Assembly (NCBI GenBank): GCA_038065475.1
Contig: JBBTQY010000015.1
Location: 6,608-70,607 of the forward strand
Length of the DNA: 64,000 nucleotides
Source: Patescibacteria group bacterium
GTDB lineage: Bacteria > Patescibacteriota > Minisyncoccia > Ryanbacterales > GWA2-47-10b
Reading direction: 5' to 3'
The notes under the pieces were generated by a model that did no database searches, was not told where the DNA came from, and saw nothing but the letters and a program-made list of their open reading frames with translations. The translations under genes and the position numbers were made by a program. Below, piece by piece: positions 50,587-59,330 of the stretch (the first letter of the stretch is position 1; every line of letters starts with the position of its first letter).

Positions 50587-51129
50587 TTATGCAGAAATTT
50601 CCAAAAGTGTGCCGCGTGCACCGGGTACTGCACCGCGTACGTACAAAAGATTCTTCTCGGCATCGACTTTGGCGACACGCAAACCCTCAACCGTAACGCG
50701 TGTACCACCCATACGGCCACCCATACGAGTACCCTTGAGTACGCGCTGAGGCCATACCGCACCGATCGAGCCTGGCTCACGATGAGCGTGCTTTACACCG
50801 TGGGTCTTGGGTGCACCTTTAAAGCCGTGGCGCTTGACCACACCCTGAAAACCGCGGCCCTTCATGGTGCCTGATACCTTAACCAGATCTCCTTCGGCAA
50901 ACACCGAAACATCGATTTTTGCACCCTTTTCAAATGAATCTTCGGTGCGAAATTCCTTACGGGTCTTGCCGAATGCGACCTGGACTGCCTCATAGCCATC
51001 CTTTTCCTTGCCCTTTACCTGTGAGACCTCGACGGGACCAGCCTGAATGACGGTCACAGGGATTACCGTGCCGTCGTCTTGAAATATTTGGCTCATTTCG
51101 AGCTTTTTGCCGAGGATGAATTTTTTCAT
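50587..51129 (-). CDS. rplC: 50S ribosomal protein L3
   Basis: Canonical L3 sequence. rpsJ is not directly upstream; a 5.4-kb insert separates them. Confidence 0.9.
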   Translation of the reverse strand: MKKFILGKKLEMSQIFQDDGTVIPVTVIQAGPVEVSQVKGKEKDGYEAVQVAFGKTRKEFRTEDSFEKGAKIDVSVFAEGDLVKVSGTMKGRGFQGVVKRHGFKGAPKTHGVKHAHREPGSIGAVWPQRVLKGTRMGGRMGGTRVTVEGLRVAKVDAEKNLLYVRGAVPGARGTLLEISA

Positions 51130-51296: not shown

Positions 51297-51325
51297 TTGA
51301 CAATAAGCATTTACTGGTTTATTAT
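51297..51325 (+). promoter_or_regulatory. Near-consensus sigma70-type promoter for pseudo-receiver module 1
   Basis: TTGACA (51297-51302), a 17-nt spacer, then TATTAT (51320-51325). A GGAAGGAGGG RBS follows, then the ATG at 51346. Confidence 0.45.
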
Positions 51326-51345
51326 AGGCACCGGAAGGAGGGTTG

Positions 51346-51759
51346 ATGACCCAACATGAAAAGAAGGCGGTTCTCATCGTCAATGGAGACCAGGAAAGCC
51401 GGCGCCTTTTGCGCTTCCGTTTGGAGCGAGCTGGCTACCGCGCAGTCATGACAACCAAGGGCAGTATTGCGCTCGACGTGATCATGGATGGCGGTAAGCC
51501 CGACCTCATCGTCACGGAGCTCGTGCTCCCTGGACTTGACGGCTTCGGCCTGATCGAAGGCGTGCGTAGACAACACACGCTCCAAGACCTGCCGATCATC
51601 GTGCTCACCGCACAGACTCTGGGCGGTGTGCGTGAGCGGGCGCTCGCGGCGGGTGCCAACGAGTTCTTCACCATCCCACTCGAGGAGCCTCTGGCTCTCA
51701 CGGCGGCCATTCGGCGACTTCTCGAAGCCGTGCCCGCCCGGCACACCCAGCTCGGATAG
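51346..51759 (+). CDS. Stand-alone receiver-domain protein in which Glu replaces the phospho-acceptor Asp (atypical / pseudo-receiver)
   Basis: A CheY-like fold is indicated by ...AVLIVNGDQESRRLL...DLIVTELVLPGLDG...IIVLTAQ...K at about +50 aa. The canonical LLDxxMPxxDG is replaced by VTELVLPGLDG, and the acidic pair DD is replaced by NGD. The sequence is GC-rich. Confidence 0.55.
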   Translation: MTQHEKKAVLIVNGDQESRRLLRFRLERAGYRAVMTTKGSIALDVIMDGGKPDLIVTELVLPGLDGFGLIEGVRRQHTLQDLPIIVLTAQTLGGVRERALAAGANEFFTIPLEEPLALTAAIRRLLEAVPARHTQLG

Positions 51760-51785
51760 AGCCTCCGAGCAGAGAGGAGGGGGAA

Positions 51786-51983
51786 ATGCCTGGAGAAAGA
51801 GTTCTCGTCATCACAACCAATCTGAGCCCGCTCGAGAGCGTGCTCCAGGGACTGGGCATGATCCGAGAAGCCCGTGAGGAGTTCCTTGGCACGACCATCG
51901 TGGTGTACGGCGCGCTGGACGCGTCGCCACCAACGGAGTTCGTGCCGCTCCACCGTACACTCGAGAAGCTTCCCAACTCGTAA
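51786..51983 (+). CDS. Small hypothetical protein (65 aa), partner of pseudo-receiver 1
   Basis: An AGAGGAGGGGG RBS precedes the ATG. Its N-terminus MPGERVLVITT resembles that of the 52147 ORF (KTGERITVMT). Confidence 0.4.
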   Translation: MPGERVLVITTNLSPLESVLQGLGMIREAREEFLGTTIVVYGALDASPPTEFVPLHRTLEKLPNS

Positions 51984-52003
51984 CAAGCGCCCACGCGCGC
52001 AAC

Positions 52004-52037
52004 CCCGGTCACCAACATCAACGGTGACCGGTTTTTT
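52004..52037 (+). terminator. Rho-independent terminator
   Basis: ccggtcacc-aacatcaac-ggtgaccgg followed by TTTTTTTAT. Confidence 0.55.
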
Positions 52038-52039
52038 TA

Positions 52040-52068
52040 TTGACATTTTATAAGAAATAGTATATAAA
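52040..52068 (+). promoter_or_regulatory. Near-consensus sigma70-type promoter for module 2
   Basis: TTGACA (52040-52045), a 17-nt spacer, then TATAAA (52063-52068). It lies immediately after the module-1 terminator. Confidence 0.45.
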
Positions 52069-52146
52069 AAGCCTAGATTTCTTCCCTATCCCCTGCGGCT
52101 GCGGCCCAGGGCTTCCCCTTTACCAAAAGGGCTATCGGAGGACACG

Positions 52147-52524
52147 ATGCGAGTAACCTTGAAAACGGGCGAGAGAATCACGGTCATGACACCGGACGAC
52201 GACACAGAAGCCGGTCGTCTGGCCTACAATCTTCTCTTTACCCTGCTCGCCCTTCTCGCGTCAGAGACGCCGCGAGACATCAAGCTGAAGTTCCAATTCA
52301 CTGGCAAGAACTCAGCTACGATCGCTCTGTTCATCGACGACAAGCTGCGCGAGAATATTCCGTGCATCAACTTCAACCTGGGGCGCTCGGTGGGTCGCGC
52401 ACGCGCCGTCGACCTGATACGCTTCCGTCTCGGTGGGCTCGTCTGCGCGCTGACCGGCGGCAAGTTCGCACTACTCGACGACATCAACGCGGGCTCGACG
52501 ATCCACCTTGCCCGCCTTCTCTGA
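52147..52524 (+). CDS. Hypothetical protein (125 aa) whose N-terminal motif is related to the 65-aa ORF
   Basis: A GGAGGA RBS lies 4 nt upstream. It begins MRVTLKTGERITVMTPDDD..., and no family was recognised. Confidence 0.4.
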   Translation: MRVTLKTGERITVMTPDDDTEAGRLAYNLLFTLLALLASETPRDIKLKFQFTGKNSATIALFIDDKLRENIPCINFNLGRSVGRARAVDLIRFRLGGLVCALTGGKFALLDDINAGSTIHLARLL

Positions 52525-52538
52525 CGAGAGGAAATAAC

Positions 52539-52910
52539 ATGCCAAACAGCAAAACCGTACTACTCGCAGATACACGAAGCTACCGGATGGAATGGGAAGC
52601 GCTCATCGGATATCAGGTCGGGACACACTCAATTCGTTTCCATGAAGCTTGGAGTGTATTGAGCGCGGTCGCGGCCACACAGCGTGAGTGTCCAAACCTC
52701 ATCATCACCGAGCTGCTCGGTGCCGAGCATGGATGCTGGATGATCCGTGAACTGCGCCGCATCGCGCCCGACTCCCGCATCATCGTGGTGTCGGCGAACA
52801 ATACAGACAGGATCGCCGACGCAATCCATGCGGGAGCAGTCGAATACTTCACCAAGCCCCTCGACTACGACAGGTTCATCGGCACCGTGCGGCGATACCT
52901 CGAGCTCTAG
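52539..52910 (+). CDS. Second stand-alone atypical receiver-domain protein (Glu at the phospho-acceptor position)
   Basis: It contains KTVLLADTRSY...NLIITELLGAEHGCW...RIIVVSANN...K, with the same TEL substitution as the 51346 protein. A GAGAGGA RBS is present; the start was chosen at MPNSK. Confidence 0.5.
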   Translation: MPNSKTVLLADTRSYRMEWEALIGYQVGTHSIRFHEAWSVLSAVAATQRECPNLIITELLGAEHGCWMIRELRRIAPDSRIIVVSANNTDRIADAIHAGAVEYFTKPLDYDRFIGTVRRYLEL

Positions 52911-52934
52911 GCGCACACACGCCACCAACGCCAC

Positions 52935-52978
52935 GAGGCGCTTCTGGAAGCATTCCGGAAGCGCCTCTTTTCTTTTTT
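52935..52978 (+). terminator. Rho-independent terminator after module 2
   Basis: A 10-bp stem gaggcgcttc...gaagcgcctc followed by TTTTCTTTTTT. Confidence 0.55.
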
Positions 52979-53024
52979 GTACGGCTTGACCGCTAGGATA
53001 AAATGGTTTACTCTCTGGGCTAAA

Positions 53025-53099
53025 GCTGGCGGAGCGAACGCGCCGAAGTTGGGGAACTCTCCCACCCTGATAACGGACGCCCTTGTTCGCTCCGCCAGC
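53025..53099. ncRNA. Candidate structured RNA or cis-element: a 15-bp perfect inverted repeat enclosing a 45-nt loop that has internal hairpins
   Basis: gctggcggagcgaac (53025-39) and gttcgctccgccagc (53085-99). The loop contains the gggaactctccc hairpin. It lies in intergenic sequence between the module-2 terminator and a convergent gene terminator (53151-53176). Confidence 0.2.
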
Positions 53100-53193
53100 C
53101 CATCGAAGCACTTTCGACCATCCCCTGCAGCCAGAGACGGCATCACAAAAAAACCACACCATCCACGGTGTGGTTTCGTCATTTTATACAGAG

Positions 53194-53523
53194 TTAAGCG
53201 CGCGAAACTTTAATATATCGGTAAATCGAGCGCACGATACTAATAAGACCCGCGCCCAGAAGAATAGGAAGAGCAACGAGTCCCGCGGAGCATCGCCAAT
53301 CTTCTCCCTGTACACCAAAGCAAGCAGCGAAAGTTATAAAAAAGATAAATGCTGCGGGAATGCCAGCGATAAGAGCTACCTCCACAATGTGCAAAAGCAA
53401 AGAAAAAATATTCACTATTTTACGGCGAGGCAAAAAGAATATGAGTACTAACACAAGTAAAAACGCGCAGAGTATTACTATCTCTGGATAAAAGAAAAAT
53501 AATTCTGCGATATCTCGTAACAT
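53194..53523 (-). CDS. Hypothetical small membrane protein
   Basis: A 109-aa ORF with 3 hydrophobic helices. A terminator hairpin aaaccacacc...ggtgtggttt lies downstream on the minus strand. Confidence 0.4.
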   Translation of the reverse strand: MLRDIAELFFFYPEIVILCAFLLVLVLIFFLPRRKIVNIFSLLLHIVEVALIAGIPAAFIFFITFAACFGVQGEDWRCSAGLVALPILLGAGLISIVRSIYRYIKVSRA

Positions 53524-53540
53524 ATTTTTATATTAATCTC

Positions 53541-53993
53541 TTAAAAAACTTTTTTGCCGTGCGCGTTCCAGTACATCCAGAGATGTACTGCGGCAACGAT
53601 GTACAAGATAGCGGTCACCGTAAAGACAAACCCGCCCCATGCGATGCGCATTCCAATATTGTTGCCGATGATTGGTACAAGACCAAGGTTAATACCCGAC
53701 ACCACGCTGACAAAAAACATAACAGTATCACGCATATCTTTTTTACCAAACACTTTCTGCCCGCCTGTATACCAGCGCCAGCCGAGATATGCTGATGCCG
53801 CGCCCGAGACGAGCCACGAGAGTGTGAGGATGGTGCCTACCAGTCCATAAAAAACTGAAGAGCCAAGCAGCCAATAGAGTGGCGGCGTGCCGCCTAACAG
53901 TAATGCAAATGCGGCGATAACTAACCGCGCCTCTGACCAGAGAAAAGAATACTTTTCCAAATTCTCCGGCTTTGTAAATTCTTGTGTGGTCAT
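53541..53993 (-). CDS. Hypothetical membrane protein. It is the intact copy of the gene whose 5' end is repeated twice nearby.
   Basis: A 150-aa ORF with 4 transmembrane helices. Its N-terminus MTTQEFTKPENLEKYSFLWSEAR recurs in truncated form at 55024-55101 and 55838-55900. Confidence 0.5.
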   Translation of the reverse strand: MTTQEFTKPENLEKYSFLWSEARLVIAAFALLLGGTPPLYWLLGSSVFYGLVGTILTLSWLVSGAASAYLGWRWYTGGQKVFGKKDMRDTVMFFVSVVSGINLGLVPIIGNNIGMRIAWGGFVFTVTAILYIVAAVHLWMYWNAHGKKVF

Positions 53994-54112
53994 ATATGCA
54001 TGAGATTACTGATATCGTCTTTAGTATATCACCTTAAGTTACCAACAAGCATCAACCTCTATGCACAGAACAATACTAGCGCCTAAGAACCAAAACTCCT
54101 TATAATAAACTT

Positions 54113-54421
54113 ATGACTTACTGGCAAAGATTAGCGCGTAGTACTTCTGCCTTTGGTTTACTCTGGTTATTTGTGTTTCTATCAGATGTGCTAGGACAAG
54201 TAAAAAGCTTTGTGCCTCAAAAAGCTTATGTCCCGCAAGAAGCTCTTCTGAAAAACATACAAGAAACTTGGTTTGCCGGTTTAGTAGGTACCTTTCTCAC
54301 AATAATACTGTTCTCACTTTTTATTCGCTCAGAAAAAATCTATACCGCGCAATCTACAGGATCAATAATTGGTTTCCTTTTTGCGACTGTACTTGTAATA
54401 AGCTGGAAACTATTTTCCTAA
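54113..54421 (+). CDS. Hypothetical membrane protein
   Basis: A 102-aa ORF with 3 transmembrane helices. A terminator follows (aaaaccgcccaagggcggtttttgg, 54437-54462). Confidence 0.35.
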   Translation: MTYWQRLARSTSAFGLLWLFVFLSDVLGQVKSFVPQKAYVPQEALLKNIQETWFAGLVGTFLTIILFSLFIRSEKIYTAQSTGSIIGFLFATVLVISWKLFS

Positions 54422-54515
54422 GAGTATTTTCGATCAACCAAAAACCGCCCAAGGGCGGTTTTTGGTTGGACAGGATCCTTTGACTACATCTTTACTTCGA
54501 CATCAACACCGCAAA

Positions 54516-54755
54516 TTATTTTAATTGAACAACCTTGGCCTTGGAACCAAGAAAATGTTCCAGTTTACCCTTACCTTCGCGAAAAGTATCAAAGCTGAAA
54601 CCGTGAATATCGATACGTACCGGATTGCCCTTTTTATCAACATCAATAACCACGTTGCCCCTGATATCAGAATCAACGCTTTTGCCTTTACCTACGGCAA
54701 GGGAAAGTACCTCGCTGCCGCGGTCGTATGAAATTTTTCTTTGTTGTTTGCTCAT
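54516..54755 (-). CDS. DUF2283-family protein (putative antitoxin-like partner)
   Basis: A 79-aa ORF with KISYDRGSEVLSLAVGKGKSV...GNVVIDVDKKGNPVRIDIHGFS, which matches the DUF2283 pattern (ISYD.E.D.LYI.....GN.VGIEIL.AS). Confidence 0.55.
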   Translation of the reverse strand: MSKQQRKISYDRGSEVLSLAVGKGKSVDSDIRGNVVIDVDKKGNPVRIDIHGFSFDTFREGKGKLEHFLGSKAKVVQLK

Positions 54756-55000
54756 AAATATTTCTTGATTTTAGATGTTTCTATAACTGTAATAACACGC
54801 AGTGTATCTTTTACTTTTTCACCAATAACTATCAACAGTCTCGGTATATGCCGCTTTTTATACAGCTTTTTAAACATCAATCTACCTCTTGCATCATATA
54901 ATATTTTTGTTGGATTTACCAATGCTTCCTCAATGAGTGCTACGGAAATAGATCTCTCCTGCATCCGTAATTTTGCGTGAGGAGATAAAGTATATTTCAT
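54752..55000 (-). CDS. DUF4258-family protein (putative toxin-like partner)
   Basis: An 82-aa ORF with MKYTLSPHAKLRMQERSISVALIEEAL.NP.KI..D.....F...........VIGEKV.DTLRVITV, which matches DUF4258. It overlaps the DUF2283 gene by 4 nt. Confidence 0.55.
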   Translation of the reverse strand: MKYTLSPHAKLRMQERSISVALIEEALVNPTKILYDARGRLMFKKLYKKRHIPRLLIVIGEKVKDTLRVITVIETSKIKKYL

Positions 55001-55023
55001 GGATACATACTATCACAGACATA

Positions 55024-55101
55024 TTACACCCACCGCGCCTCTGACCAGAGAAAAGAATACTTTTCCAAATTCTCCAGCTTCATAAATTCATTTGTGGTCA
55101 T
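55024..55101 (-). pseudogene. Truncated duplicate (copy B) of the 5' end of gene 53541..53993
   Basis: It reads atgaccacaaatgaatttatgaagctggagaatttggaaaagtattcttttctctggtcagaggcgcggtgggtgtaa (MTTNEFMKLENLEKYSFLWSEARWV*). About 70 nt are near-identical to 53924-53993. It abuts the start of the DUF4258 gene. Confidence 0.5.
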
Positions 55102-55106
55102 AGGAT

Positions 55107-55499
55107 TTAAGAACTAAAATATTTAATAATTAAGGAAAAACCGACAAAGACTAAAACAAAAAAAATAAATATGATGTACCGAGGGAGCTCCCCTTTCTCT
55201 TGAGGACGCTTTGCCCCAACTAAATCTTTGGCCGTACCAATAGCAATTCCAGCGGGCATGCTCCCCAAACCATATGACTGTGTATCTTTACCAGTCAAAC
55301 CGGTAAGTTTTCGATATCGATACCATTTTGCATATCCAACTAATAACGTTCCTATAAAGAATGTTGGCCATAGCATTATCCAGAGATTTTCATTCATATC
55401 GGGAAATGCCGCTGTCAAAAAACCCATCGCAACAAAAGTTACAACAAATGCAAGAAGGTAGTAAGTGTAAAGCGTGAATGGTTTCCTGGGGGACTCCAT
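55107..55499 (-). CDS. Hypothetical membrane protein
   Basis: A 130-aa ORF with 4 transmembrane helices. The start was chosen at MESPRKPF; the longest ORF extends into GC-rich upstream sequence that is probably non-coding. Confidence 0.35.
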   Translation of the reverse strand: MESPRKPFTLYTYYLLAFVVTFVAMGFLTAAFPDMNENLWIMLWPTFFIGTLLVGYAKWYRYRKLTGLTGKDTQSYGLGSMPAGIAIGTAKDLVGAKRPQEKGELPRYIIFIFFVLVFVGFSLIIKYFSS

Positions 55500-55548
55500 A
55501 TTTTCAGTATACCATCCGAAATAAAAAACCGCCCGAGGGGGCGGGGTG

Positions 55549-55803
55549 TCACTTGATCGTGTAGTAGGGCACGCCCCTGACCACGTGTCTCTCAGCAGTA
55601 TGTCCGCCGATACCCAGAAGCAACCCGATGAGGGTCTCGCCATCAGCAGGTATGAGCCTGCCCGAAAAGTTGATTGACATGACCTTCTCAGGATCGGTCC
55701 GCGCTGAGGGCGGAGGACCACTACTACTGCCGGCCCTGACCCGATAGATCTTGAATGTGCGCGGGGGCTCAAACGAAATTACATCGCCACTATTCAACCT
55801 CAC
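55549..55803 (-). CDS. Small GC-rich hypothetical protein (GTG start)
   Basis: An AGGAGG RBS lies 6 nt upstream of the GTG at 55803. The GC content is atypical for the AT-rich neighbourhood. No family was recognised. Confidence 0.3.
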   Translation of the reverse strand: MRLNSGDVISFEPPRTFKIYRVRAGSSSGPPPSARTDPEKVMSINFSGRLIPADGETLIGLLLGIGGHTAERHVVRGVPYYTIK

Positions 55804-55837
55804 AAGCCACCTCCTTTCTGGCACAGGCTAGCACAAA

Positions 55838-55900
55838 CTAAAAACCTCCGCCAAGCGGAGGTTCCAAATTCTCCGGCTTTGTAAATTCTTGTGTGGTCAT
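55838..55900 (-). pseudogene. Truncated duplicate (copy C) of the 5' end of gene 53541..53993
   Basis: It reads atgaccacacaagaatttacaaagccggagaatttggaa (identical to 53955-53993), then cctccgcttggcggaggtttttag, which forms a hairpin. Confidence 0.5.
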
Positions 55901-55929
55901 AGATAAAAATTATTTTTAGCTAATAAAAA

Positions 55930-56502
55930 TTAATTTTCATAGCCTAGCGTGCGATCGTTAGCGACAAGATGATATTTGCTTCCGCCAACATCTACTAAAA
56001 GCTCTATATCGTAAGGTCCTACGGGATGAGTAACTTTTTTATATTCAAGTTTAACAATGACATCCTCGCCTTCTTTAACTAGCAATGGAACATCTTCGAG
56101 AACAATATAAAGTTTTTTTCGGAAACTAGCCCAATCAAATACTTGAACACCAAGAACAGACTTACCGAAGTCTTCGAGCTCAGATTTTAAAGCGTCGAGG
56201 GAATATTTATAAAAAGCTTTTTTGATTTCTTGAGATAATATCTCACTCCAAATATTATTATCTATGTATTTACTAGCTTTTGCGAGCACATAAATCTCGT
56301 TTAGTATTTTCTCTGCATCTTTTGTAAGAAATGCATGGCATATCCAATTTCTATAAAATCTTATTACCTTAAAATTCGATTGTCGACCTGGAACCAATTC
56401 CAAATACTTACAAATTCCCACTAAAACATAAATTATGTCTTGTTCTGAATATGATGTTTGGGTAAAAATATTTTTAGTCTTATCTAAAATTACTGATTTC
56501 AT
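55930..56502 (-). CDS. Hypothetical protein (190 aa, AT-rich), no recognisable family
   Basis: A long ORF with a terminator downstream (aaagccccgcagggcggggctttt, 56519-56542). It sits directly upstream of rpsJ. Confidence 0.45.
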   Translation of the reverse strand: MKSVILDKTKNIFTQTSYSEQDIIYVLVGICKYLELVPGRQSNFKVIRFYRNWICHAFLTKDAEKILNEIYVLAKASKYIDNNIWSEILSQEIKKAFYKYSLDALKSELEDFGKSVLGVQVFDWASFRKKLYIVLEDVPLLVKEGEDVIVKLEYKKVTHPVGPYDIELLVDVGGSKYHLVANDRTLGYEN

Positions 56503-56552
56503 AAAGCTCTCTAGAAAACAAAAGCCCCGCAGGGCGGGGCTTTTGGTCTCGT

Positions 56553-56885
56553 TTACATCTTTACCTCTACATCAACACCGGCAGGAAGGTTGAGGTTGGT
56601 GAGCGCATCGATGATCTTGGGCGTTGGGTCCTTGATATCGACAATGCGCTTGTGCACGCGCATCTCAAACTGTTCGCGAGCGTTTTTGTGCACGAATGTC
56701 GAGCGGTTTACTGTGTACTTACGGATTTCCGTAGGCAGCGGCACCGGCCCTACAATCTCGCCTCCGTACCTGCGCGCGGTCTCTACAATCTGCTTTACCG
56801 ACGCGTCGATGACCTTGTTGTCATACGCGCGGATGCGAATGCGGAGCTTGGTCGCGGTTGGAGTTTTGTCTGCTGCTCGTGCCAT
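56553..56885 (-). CDS. rpsJ: 30S ribosomal protein S10
   Basis: ...[40 protein letters not shown]... is the canonical S10 sequence. Confidence 0.9.
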
Positions 56886-58106: not shown

Positions 58107-58175
58107 AGTGAAAAAGCGATTAAAACTAGTAATTATTAGATAACGCCAATGATAGTGAAAATACCCTCCCCTGTC

Positions 58176-58275
58176 AATCCCGTTACATTTTTACTAGGCA
58201 TGATTTATAGAAAGTGCCTGTTTAATATCTAATAATCCCAATGCCACAAAAGAAAACCCAAAAAAATGTAACGGG
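58176..58275. repeat. 14-bp perfect inverted repeat pair flanking about 72 nt, upstream of tuf
   Basis: cccgttacattttt (58176-58189) and aaaaatgtaacggg (58262-58275). Confidence 0.3.
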
Positions 58276-58464
58276 ATCAAATCAGGGCTTTGGGACTTCC
58301 CTCACAATGGAAGGTCGTCGGCCGTCGCATCAGTGCGCTCGAGGTCTTCGGTAGCCAGTTCTTCGGCAAAAGAGAAGTCACCGTCTACCTCGCGCTCATC
58401 AAAACCTTGGGGCTCGTGTGCCATATACAAAGCATAGCTTAGAAAAAATCAATATAAAAGAAGA

Positions 58465-58490
58465 ACAGCGGAGCCCGTGGGGGCTCCGCT
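58465..58490 (-). terminator. Rho-independent terminator of the GC-rich secreted-protein gene
   Basis: cagcggagccc-gtgg-gggctccgctg, followed on the minus strand by a U-rich tract (the plus strand reads aaaaaatcaatataaaagaagaa upstream). Confidence 0.5.
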
Positions 58491-58555
58491 GTGGTGCGGG
58501 GTGTTCGCGGGGGTGCGAACGAGAGAACGGGGGAACGGGGGAACGAGAAGCTTCG

Positions 58556-59164
58556 TCAGCTGGTCGTGCGCGCCTGCGGGTCGTTCGAGCTGTGGCCCGG
58601 AACCCTGGCGAGTGCGCCGATGTCGTGCGGGCTGCCGCGCGAGCCGTCGTCGATGCCGGCGAAGGTGATGCTGCCGACGAGGATGCCGGCCGCGGTGGTG
58701 CTGATGGCGCCGCTGGCACCCGTGTCGTCGTAGAACGCCGTGCAGATCATCGTCTCGCAGACGCCGAGGCCAGCCTGGGCCATGGTCGTCGCGGTGGTGA
58801 GGTCGGCCTTCTTGCCGCCCTGCATGAACTGGTACACGCCGGACTCGGTCTTGGTCAGCTCGATGGCCGCGCCGGTCTGGTTGGTGTCGATCGTGCCGCT
58901 GCTCTGGGTCACGGTGGGCTCGGTCCAGTCGAAGGCGATCAGATCGCCTGCCATGAGCTCCACGCGCGGGACGAGCGCGATGTCGCGCTGGATGTTGTCG
59001 TCCGGGCCGGTGTCGATCATGCGGCCGATGTACGTCGAACCGGTGTTCGTCTGCTCCGTGCCCACGCCGAGCGGGACGAGCAGGCCGAGGGCCACGATCA
59101 TCGCCACAGCGATGGTCCACGGAGCGTAGGTGCCGATGCGGAACCGCTTGATGCTCTGGGTCAT
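58556..59164 (-). CDS. GC-rich hypothetical secreted or membrane-anchored protein, Thr/Gly-rich
   Basis: A GGAGGA RBS lies 6 nt upstream of the ATG at 59164. An N-terminal signal/anchor is present (MTQSIKRFRIGTYAPWTIAVAMIVALGLLVPLGVG). The overlapping long ORFs in other frames are compositional artefacts. Confidence 0.45.
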   Translation of the reverse strand: MTQSIKRFRIGTYAPWTIAVAMIVALGLLVPLGVGTEQTNTGSTYIGRMIDTGPDDNIQRDIALVPRVELMAGDLIAFDWTEPTVTQSSGTIDTNQTGAAIELTKTESGVYQFMQGGKKADLTTATTMAQAGLGVCETMICTAFYDDTGASGAISTTAAGILVGSITFAGIDDGSRGSPHDIGALARVPGHSSNDPQARTTS

Positions 59165-59330
59165 CTTCTTTCCTCCGTCGTTGTCGAGGAGCTCCCCTGG
59201 TAAGGGGGCTCGGTGGTGGTACTTCCCCCTCACTATACCCAAGCTCGATATTTTCGTCAATATTCCTGTGCAAAAATCAAAAAGCGCCCCTCCGCATACG
59301 CTCCGGACGCTTTTTGGTCAAAATACGTTT

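Follow-up and report, generated by a model that had tools for sequence, protein, structure and literature searches.

Defence islands are integration hotspots that lie between core genes and carry defence and toxin–antitoxin genes. Among arrays that grow by the addition of modules, the orphan effector–immunity arrays of the Vibrio cholerae type VI secretion system (T6SS) and the toxin–immunity arrays of the Rhs and contact-dependent inhibition (CDI) systems have been ascribed to sequential displacement, for which homology-facilitated illegitimate recombination (HFIR) was proposed (Kirchberger et al. 2017, PMC5361080, where Koskiniemi 2014 and Poole 2011 are cited). HFIR itself has been described in natural transformation (de Vries & Wackernagel 2002; Prudhomme et al. 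2002; Meier & Wackernagel 2003, as cited in PMC5361080). Here we describe a locus in a 64,000-nt stretch (the window, whose numbering is used throughout) of contig JBBTQY010000015.1 from a Patescibacteria group bacterium, in which the start of a gene for a 150-aa membrane protein recurs twice as a truncated stump in the interval between the intact gene and rpsJ, the gene for ribosomal protein S10. In our reading the window probably holds three versions of this interval, or slot, placed head to tail, which would have been acquired separately and added serially.

The region belongs to the str/S10 ribosomal-protein gene block. Here, on the minus strand, fus is followed by tuf, rpsJ (56553..56885), an additional 5.4 kb of genes and then rplC (50587..51129). 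A repeat search of the window returned a three-copy family consisting of copy A at 53924–53994, copy B at 55032–55102 and copy C at 55862–55901 (the matching part of 55831–55901), all on the minus strand and all with similarity that starts at the ATG. Copy A is the beginning (first 70 nt, 53924–53993) of the intact membrane-protein gene (53541..53993). Copy B matches it at 66 of 71 nt (93%), and copy C at all 39 of 39 (55862–55900). Pattern searches located a 37-nt proximal core at 53957–53993 and 55864–55900 and a 42-nt distal part at 53926–53967 and 55034–55075, each with 0 mismatches, while shuffled sequence gave 0 matches to either. The triplicated gene start that an earlier note had reported, and for which it proposed a self-comparison of the 53.5–56.0 kb region, is therefore borne out, since the search recovered A, B and C; the further copies that the note suggested looking for did not appear, as repeat, pattern and tblastn searches of the 64 kb window gave no fourth.

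The two stumps end differently. Copy B (55024..55102, minus strand) comprises nt 1 to ~72 of an orthologous gene start and forms a 25-aa open reading frame (ORF; 55024..55101, MTTNEFMKLENLEKYSFLWSEARWV followed by a stop) that terminates 23 nt before the ATG, at 55000, of a gene of the DUF4258 family. Copy C (55862..55900, minus strand) comprises nt 1–39, has an ORF of at most 13 codons, and after nt 39 enters a terminator-like hairpin (55865–55841). The earlier note had described both of these endings correctly; its figure of about 90% identity for copy B was close, the actual value being 93%. Its statement that the sequences upstream of the copies are unrelated needs to be qualified for copy C, where the upstream sequence weakly resembles the native region ahead of the gene in L002, albeit in AT-rich DNA. 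(L002, L003, L004, L006, L012, L014–L019, L020 and L021 are labels of the compared contigs and genomes.)

The origin of copy B is indicated by L020, which is colinear with window positions 55834–55033 at 85.8% identity over 802 nt. The match spans a small gene (orf91), a terminator (T3), a TGGTATACT box, a second membrane-protein gene (mem131) with the 8-nt spacer that follows it, and 69 nt from the start of the 150-aa membrane-protein gene. Past these 69 nt the L020 gene goes on intact (MTTNEFMKPESLEKYSFLWSEARLIIAALALLLGG...), and the window switches to the upstream region of DUF4258. Copy B is also nearer to the gene starts of other genomes (95.7% to L004, 94.3% to L003 and ~96% to L020) than to copy A (92.9%), and it has N4 and M7 in common with L020. 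Because the L020 block continues into an intact gene and copy B resembles other genomes more than it does copy A, we take it to be the stump of an imported orthologue rather than a duplicate of the resident target. The same argument would make copy C the end of a block that consists of S10, a terminator (T1) and an orphan gene (g190).

Read in this way, the array resolves into three candidate alleles of the slot. Allele alpha consists of S10, T1 (56514..56550), g190 (55930..56502) and gene nt 1–39, the last being copy C. Allele beta opens with the terminator-like hairpin (55841..55865), which joins copy C at nt 39 (junction J1, 55862/55861), and continues with orf91 (55549..55824), T3 (55506..55546), mem131 (55107..55499) and gene nt 1 to ~72, which is copy B. 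Allele gamma contains a DUF4258/DUF2283 gene pair (54752..55000 and 54516..54755), a relic of the S10 3′ end (54485..54513), a terminator (T2, 54435..54468), a 102-aa ORF (g102, 54113..54421) and the full gene. All genes listed are on the minus strand except g102. Simpler versions with a single cassette exist elsewhere: L020 for beta, L004 for the toxin–antitoxin pair, and L003 and L021 for T1 plus one cassette. L004 represents a gamma-like state, with the pair placed directly after rpsJ. A precursor in which S10, T1 and g190 are followed by the intact gene was not found in our searches, which turned up only the same array and L012, a short-read contig (S10-T1-g190; k = 31) that breaks 30 nt into copy C.

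The earlier note had interpreted the pattern as a single target site that received one insertion after another, with a partial duplication left behind by each. Serial growth, and repeats that bound the cassettes, agree with our results. A single target with duplication does not: the stumps end at nt 39 and nt ~72, copy B is imported, and no Pfam family of recombinases, transposases, integrases or IntI was detected among genes called up to 10 kb away on each side, the remaining part of the 64 kb not having been scanned gene by gene.

Relics are present on the other flank as well. The earlier note had missed that the 3′ end of rpsJ and its terminator are also duplicated. The live terminator T1 (minus strand) lies directly 3′ of rpsJ and forms the left boundary of the variable slot; its hairpin is identical in the window, L003 and L021, an unrelated cassette follows it in each of the three, and the T1-type genomes lose homology immediately past the T-run of T1 and regain it from the ATG of the membrane-protein gene onwards. 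The relic (minus strand, encoding GVDVEVKM and a stop) is 27–29 nt long and is located 3 nt past the DUF2283 stop codon (junction J3, 54513/54514). T2, which follows it, has perfect 16-nt arms, belongs to the type that follows S10 in L004 and L002, and is probably bidirectional, also serving the convergent g102. The live counterpart of the relic and T2 (54485–54513 plus 54435–54468) is at 56554–56580 plus 56514–56550.

Between the relic and the live rpsJ end, all differences are synonymous apart from the one in the stop codon (GTC GAA .. TAG versus GTA GAG .. TAA). In L002 and L003 the live rpsJ ends match the relic at 27 of 27 positions, and the relic with its spacer and T2 (54435–54513) is 88% identical over 77 nt to the region downstream of L004 rpsJ; against L003, the live rpsJ end with T1 shows 95% identity across 110 nt. 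Since the matches go to the L004/L002 type in one case and to the L003 type in the other, the two ends belong to different lineage types. Comparable relics lie 3′ of DUF2283-family genes in L006 (~1269–1300) and L014 (1188–1235). A relic and terminator thus occur directly after a gene of this family in three lineages whose toxin–antitoxin proteins are 32–46% identical, with similar start points of about −29 to −42 nt. In L014, comparison of the relic with that genome's own rpsJ end gave 8 synonymous and 0 non-synonymous differences in 13 codons. Such a restriction to synonymous sites indicates that the two ends were functional genes of separate lineages while they diverged, and were joined afterwards.

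Comparison with relatives shows that the interval from rpsJ to the 150-aa gene is a hypervariable slot in the Ryanbacteria-like clade. The 150-aa protein has 222 homologues, mostly in Parcubacteria, with no Pfam family and no PADLOC match. Orthologues with 71–93% identity occupy the same rpsJ–rplC interval in L002, L003, L004 and L006. Homologues at 57–61% identity sit in unrelated contexts, so the linkage of the gene to S10 is specific to this clade. Between S10 with its terminator and the gene, L002 has a 73-aa ORF; L003, the closest relative, after T1, a 550-aa AIPR/AbiU abortive-infection gene (L003:6331–7983; Pfam 7e-48, PADLOC AbiU 2e-69); L004 the DUF4258/DUF2283 pair, a further terminator and a 119-aa ORF, with a second copy of the spacer plus terminator 3′ of the pair; and L021, after T1, a 139-aa ORF. 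The L006 slot holds at least five genes, two toxin–antitoxin-type cassettes among them. As L003 carries an AIPR/AbiU gene, the slot can be regarded as a small hotspot for defence and toxin–antitoxin genes. In L014–L019, from another lineage of the candidate phyla radiation (CPR), five small genes separate rpsJ from rplC, including a homologue of mem131 at 52% identity and excluding the 150-aa gene, which extends the hotspot at the rpsJ–rplC junction beyond the Ryanbacteria-like clade. As a separate observation, the 139-aa cassette ORF of L021 (L021:134–1003) runs in frame and without a stop into the membrane-protein gene, and the two have been called as a 289-aa fusion.

The 5′ end of the membrane-protein gene is itself mosaic. 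Comparison of copy A with L004 gave 0 synonymous changes at 22 sites in codons 1–23 and 39 at 104 in the remainder of the gene (binomial ~3e-5), and identity drops sharply at codon 23/24, which is the end point of copy B. The divergent patch that directly follows this 69-nt stretch, itself 97% identical to the window, comprises codons 24–50 (L004:8070–8150), where nucleotide identity is 48% and 15 of 27 amino acids differ. By these comparisons, the first 69 nt of the gene behave as a recombination anchor. The earlier note had offered as an alternative a recombination-prone leader common to a small gene family. The contrast between 0/22 and 39/104 agrees with the first half of that proposal. 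The second half was rejected: tblastn of the window returned one full gene and two stumps, no paralogous family with a common leader was found there, and neither stump starts a family gene.

We consider it likely that the slot versions were stacked by an additive process of illegitimate recombination anchored in homology. Stumps B and C, the S10-end relic, the versions with a single cassette in other genomes and the mosaic start of the membrane-protein gene can all be read directly from the genomes; from them we infer that the process was transformation with HFIR and that its anchor was rpsJ, which is highly conserved, and not the membrane-protein gene. DNA from a related cell would pair through the highly conserved tuf/rpsJ sequence (90–96% identical among lineages), and the non-homologous tail of the incoming DNA would undergo an illegitimate join close to, or at, the recipient rpsJ end, so that a new slot version would land ahead of the old one without replacing it. 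Stumps B and C would have travelled at the distal ends of imported versions, and the S10 relic would be the matching stump of the other flank. Two-sided homologous replacement would take place at the same slot too, with crossovers in rpsJ and in the first ~70 nt of the membrane-protein gene. With rpsJ as the anchor, the recipient-side junctions are all confined to a stretch from about −42 to +30 nt around the rpsJ stop codon, which fits HFIR because the border of homology is where such joins are expected; the donor-side ends vary (nt 39, nt ~72, and 3 nt past the DUF2283 stop). The direction of stacking could not be read from the phylogeny of the flanks, as core-gene identity of the window to L003, L004 and L002 is about equal (85–90% in tuf–fus and rplC–rplD); the window is locally nearer to L003 solely at the 3′ half of rpsJ.

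Several points weigh against this reconstruction. Microhomology at the junctions is at best short and ambiguous, the sole candidate being GCGGT at J2 (~55030), where the gene reads GGCGCGGT and the L004-type terminator reads GGGCGGT. The array and its junctions J1, J2 and J3 are known from assemblies. A mirror-image model anchored in the membrane-protein gene, with a break at nt 39 or 72, fits J1 and J2 equally well, although it accounts for J3 less naturally than an anchor in rpsJ does. Copy C is 100% identical to copy A, even though L003, L004, L020 and copy B all differ from it at codon 4, and this identity is explained by an intragenomic event, or by gene conversion at a later time, no less well than by an import. 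Finally, the recurrence of the relic beside toxin–antitoxin proteins that are only 32–46% identical could reflect a site-specific process and not chance joins.

Site-specific integration is one rival explanation. A recombinase would target a fixed site in the 5′ end of the membrane-protein gene or the 3′ end of rpsJ, and each element would carry a copy of its target, in the manner of integron cassettes or of islands at tRNA genes. Direct repeats of the target do flank the cassettes, S10-end relics begin at about −29 to −42 nt in all three lineages in which they follow a DUF2283 gene, and the slot boundaries, at the T-run of T1 and at the ATG, are very precise. We nevertheless regard this explanation as improbable. 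Besides the lack of integrase, transposase and IntI families within 10 kb and the unequal stump ends, copy B is of another lineage's type and is joined to an intact gene in L020, the repeat shows neither a significant hairpin (copy A z = −1.1 and −1.3 on the two strands) nor an attC-like core, and the cassettes have terminators and −10 boxes of their own, one of them being inverted. An integron/attC reading was discarded on related grounds: no recombinase lies nearby, the repeat folds weakly, and the cassettes are bordered by ordinary terminators. No attC cores (RYYYAAC / GTTRRRY) were seen in the sequence. An intragenomic route, in which unequal or illegitimate exchange between sister chromosomes duplicated the segment from the S10 end to the gene start and the slots were later refilled by homologous replacement, gives the best account of the identity of copies C and A over 39 nt, and both flanks are duplicated, as a tandem duplication predicts. 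Such a duplication should also leave a fusion of a gene stump to an S10 end, but the toxin–antitoxin pair separates copy B from the relic and a foreign hairpin follows copy C; the relic belongs to another lineage type than the live S10 end does, and the route needs more steps than direct stacking. Overall it seems rather unlikely.

The array could also be an assembly chimera, a single contig into which the slot haplotypes of three co-occurring strains were chained. Related strains with other slot versions do live in the same aquifer (L004, from Hainich well H51), the segments coincide exactly with alternative haplotypes, and the k = 31 contig L012 breaks inside copy C. J1, J2 and J3, however, contain no common repeat at which a path through the assembly graph could have switched; g190, mem131 and the 150-aa gene are each found on three contigs with the same neighbours, the longest being 535 kb (ENA, NCBI), and the gene set as such on 3–4 contigs of the collection; and similar S10 relics occur in unrelated assemblies (L006–L009, L014–L019), assembled repeatedly from different samples. 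A chimera is therefore very improbable. We give still less credence to the idea that the stumps are functional, retained either because they serve as upstream ORFs or encode leader peptides, or because, being direct repeats, they permit programmed loss and regain of cassettes (phase variation). Copy B is an intact 25-aa ORF that ends 23 nt before the toxin gene, and direct repeats of 39 and 70 nt could mediate deletion of the blocks between them, but copy C has no ORF beyond 13 codons and enters a terminator, relatives with the same cassettes (L004, L020) lack the stumps, and neither inverted repeats nor alternative arrangements were seen.

An extension of the stacking model, which we hold to be unlikely on present evidence but worth stating, is that two segments, the first ~70 nt of the membrane-protein gene and the duplicated 3′ end of S10 together with its terminator, act as portable homology arms for the cassettes. 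If so, a toxin–antitoxin or defence cassette with rpsJ sequence on both flanks could enter the 3′ end of rpsJ in related, and even distant, CPR genomes that take up the DNA, with no more than ordinary homologous recombination. This would amount to an integrase-free, selfish form of cassette mobility in which each transfer refreshes the relic from the live S10 end of the recipient. Portable arms would explain why relics with only synonymous differences follow DUF2283-family genes in three lineages despite the 32–46% identity of the toxin–antitoxin proteins, and why the first 23 codons of the membrane-protein gene are near-identical in lineages that are ~20% different elsewhere.

The cassettes differ in composition and apparent history. 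The 190-aa product of g190, the cassette of allele alpha, had no Pfam or PADLOC match and no homologue but itself among 5.8 billion proteins. orf91, the first gene of allele beta, is preceded by AGGAGG and has 57% GC, whereas its neighbours have 32–42%; the source pipeline left it uncalled. It is 96–100% identical at the nucleotide level to L020 (L020:11–283) and the neighbouring mem131 is 64–92% identical, and on the basis of this difference the beta block is itself a mosaic, in which orf91 looks to have spread recently. The second gene of the block, mem131, encodes a 130-aa membrane protein; in L020 its homologue (72%) adjoins the upstream end of the intact 150-aa gene, and the more distant 52% homologue lies in the gap between the S10 and L3 genes of another CPR genome. 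The cassette beside the intact gene, g102, encodes a 102-aa membrane protein on the opposite strand. No Pfam or PADLOC matches were obtained for orf91, mem131 or g102.

The two genes that open allele gamma overlap by 4 nt and match PF14076 (DUF4258, toxin-like; 6.9e-09, 36.3 bits against a cut-off of 25) and PF10049 (DUF2283, antitoxin-like; 2.6e-07, 31.1 bits against a cut-off of 23). Their products are 83% and 89% identical, respectively, to those of L004, where the DUF4258 copy is placed directly after S10. The pair has the pattern of a predicted type II toxin–antitoxin system; a literature search found no paper on DUF4258 and DUF2283 together. T3 and its extended −10-like TGGTATACT box, which lies 6 nt before the mem131 ATG, form a module that recurs in L004 ahead of DUF4258 and ahead of the 119-aa ORF. 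In all, a terminator hairpin with a −10-like box (TGGTATACT or TGGTACAAT) ~6 nt before a start codon was found at window 55506–55514, L004:7090–7110, L004:7655–7680 and L006:~757–765, a spacing that suggests leaderless or near-leaderless transcripts and a common inter-cassette module. When repeats and intergenic modules were compared with Rfam, no match reached half of the gathering score of any family.

A contig of a Hainich groundwater metagenome (ERZ1292624, 304 kb) matches the window, whose closest named relative is a Candidatus Ryanbacteria metagenome-assembled genome (MAG) of the CPR. Two further segments of the block vary. Gene content also differs among relatives in the part of the rpsJ–rplC gap 3′ of the membrane-protein gene (51300–53530). 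In the window this part contains a membrane ORF of 109 aa, a GC-rich ORF of 177 aa and, on the opposite strand, genes for response-regulator receivers; the counterpart in relatives consists of one or two receiver genes and different small ORFs. The tuf–fus spacer (58150–59300) measures 1225 nt, compared with ~490–550 nt in L003 and L004. Its extra part has 57% GC and long overlapping ORFs on both strands with no Pfam match, the source pipeline calls a 261-aa plus-strand gene there, and it looks like another insertion within the str operon.

The locus is of interest as an unusually legible record of how accessory genes build up in a tiny, integrase-poor CPR genome, since stumps of both flanks mark the joins. 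Although usually held to be invariant and included in a block of phylogenetic markers, the rpsJ–rplC junction is in this clade a hotspot of gene exchange. There is also a warning here for genome-resolved metagenomics, because short exact repeats of this kind break short-read assemblies, as in L012, and can pass for misassemblies or target-site duplications.

Set beside the systems introduced above, the window most resembles the T6SS, Rhs and CDI arrays. In both, on our reading, incoming DNA is anchored by conserved sequence upstream, a new module pushes the resident one downstream, fragments of a conserved gene lie between modules, simpler forms exist in other strains, and no integrase is involved. 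The window differs in that its proposed anchor is a ribosomal-protein gene, its modules are unrelated accessory cassettes and not variants of one toxin–immunity system, relics of both flanks are present (the gene 5′ stump and the rpsJ 3′ stump), and the host is an uncultivated CPR bacterium. The features of HFIR as summarized in PMC5361080 are also recognizable, namely one-sided homology, a join at the homology border, and gain of foreign DNA with little loss by the recipient; as presented there HFIR is defined by experiment, whereas in the window it is deduced from scars and microhomology at the junctions is not clear. Tandem islands at att sites in tRNA or protein genes, and integron arrays, likewise have cassettes bounded by repeated gene ends and are enriched in toxin–antitoxin and defence genes, but the window has no integrase in the part scanned, no fixed crossover point and no attC sites. 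Integron cassettes are mostly promoterless and lie in one orientation, whereas those of the window have their own terminator and TGGTATACT −10-like box, and g102 is inverted; the repeats of att-site islands end at one crossover core, whereas the window stumps end at nt 39 and ~72. Like a defence island, the slot carries unrelated accessory genes (AbiU/AIPR, a toxin–antitoxin pair) at the same core-gene position in relatives, but unlike typical islands it is very small (0.3–3 kb) and lies inside the normally contiguous rpsJ–rplC junction of the S10 operon. By these comparisons the locus is not fundamentally new; it is a clear example of an already known type of recombination scar, in an unusual place and organism.

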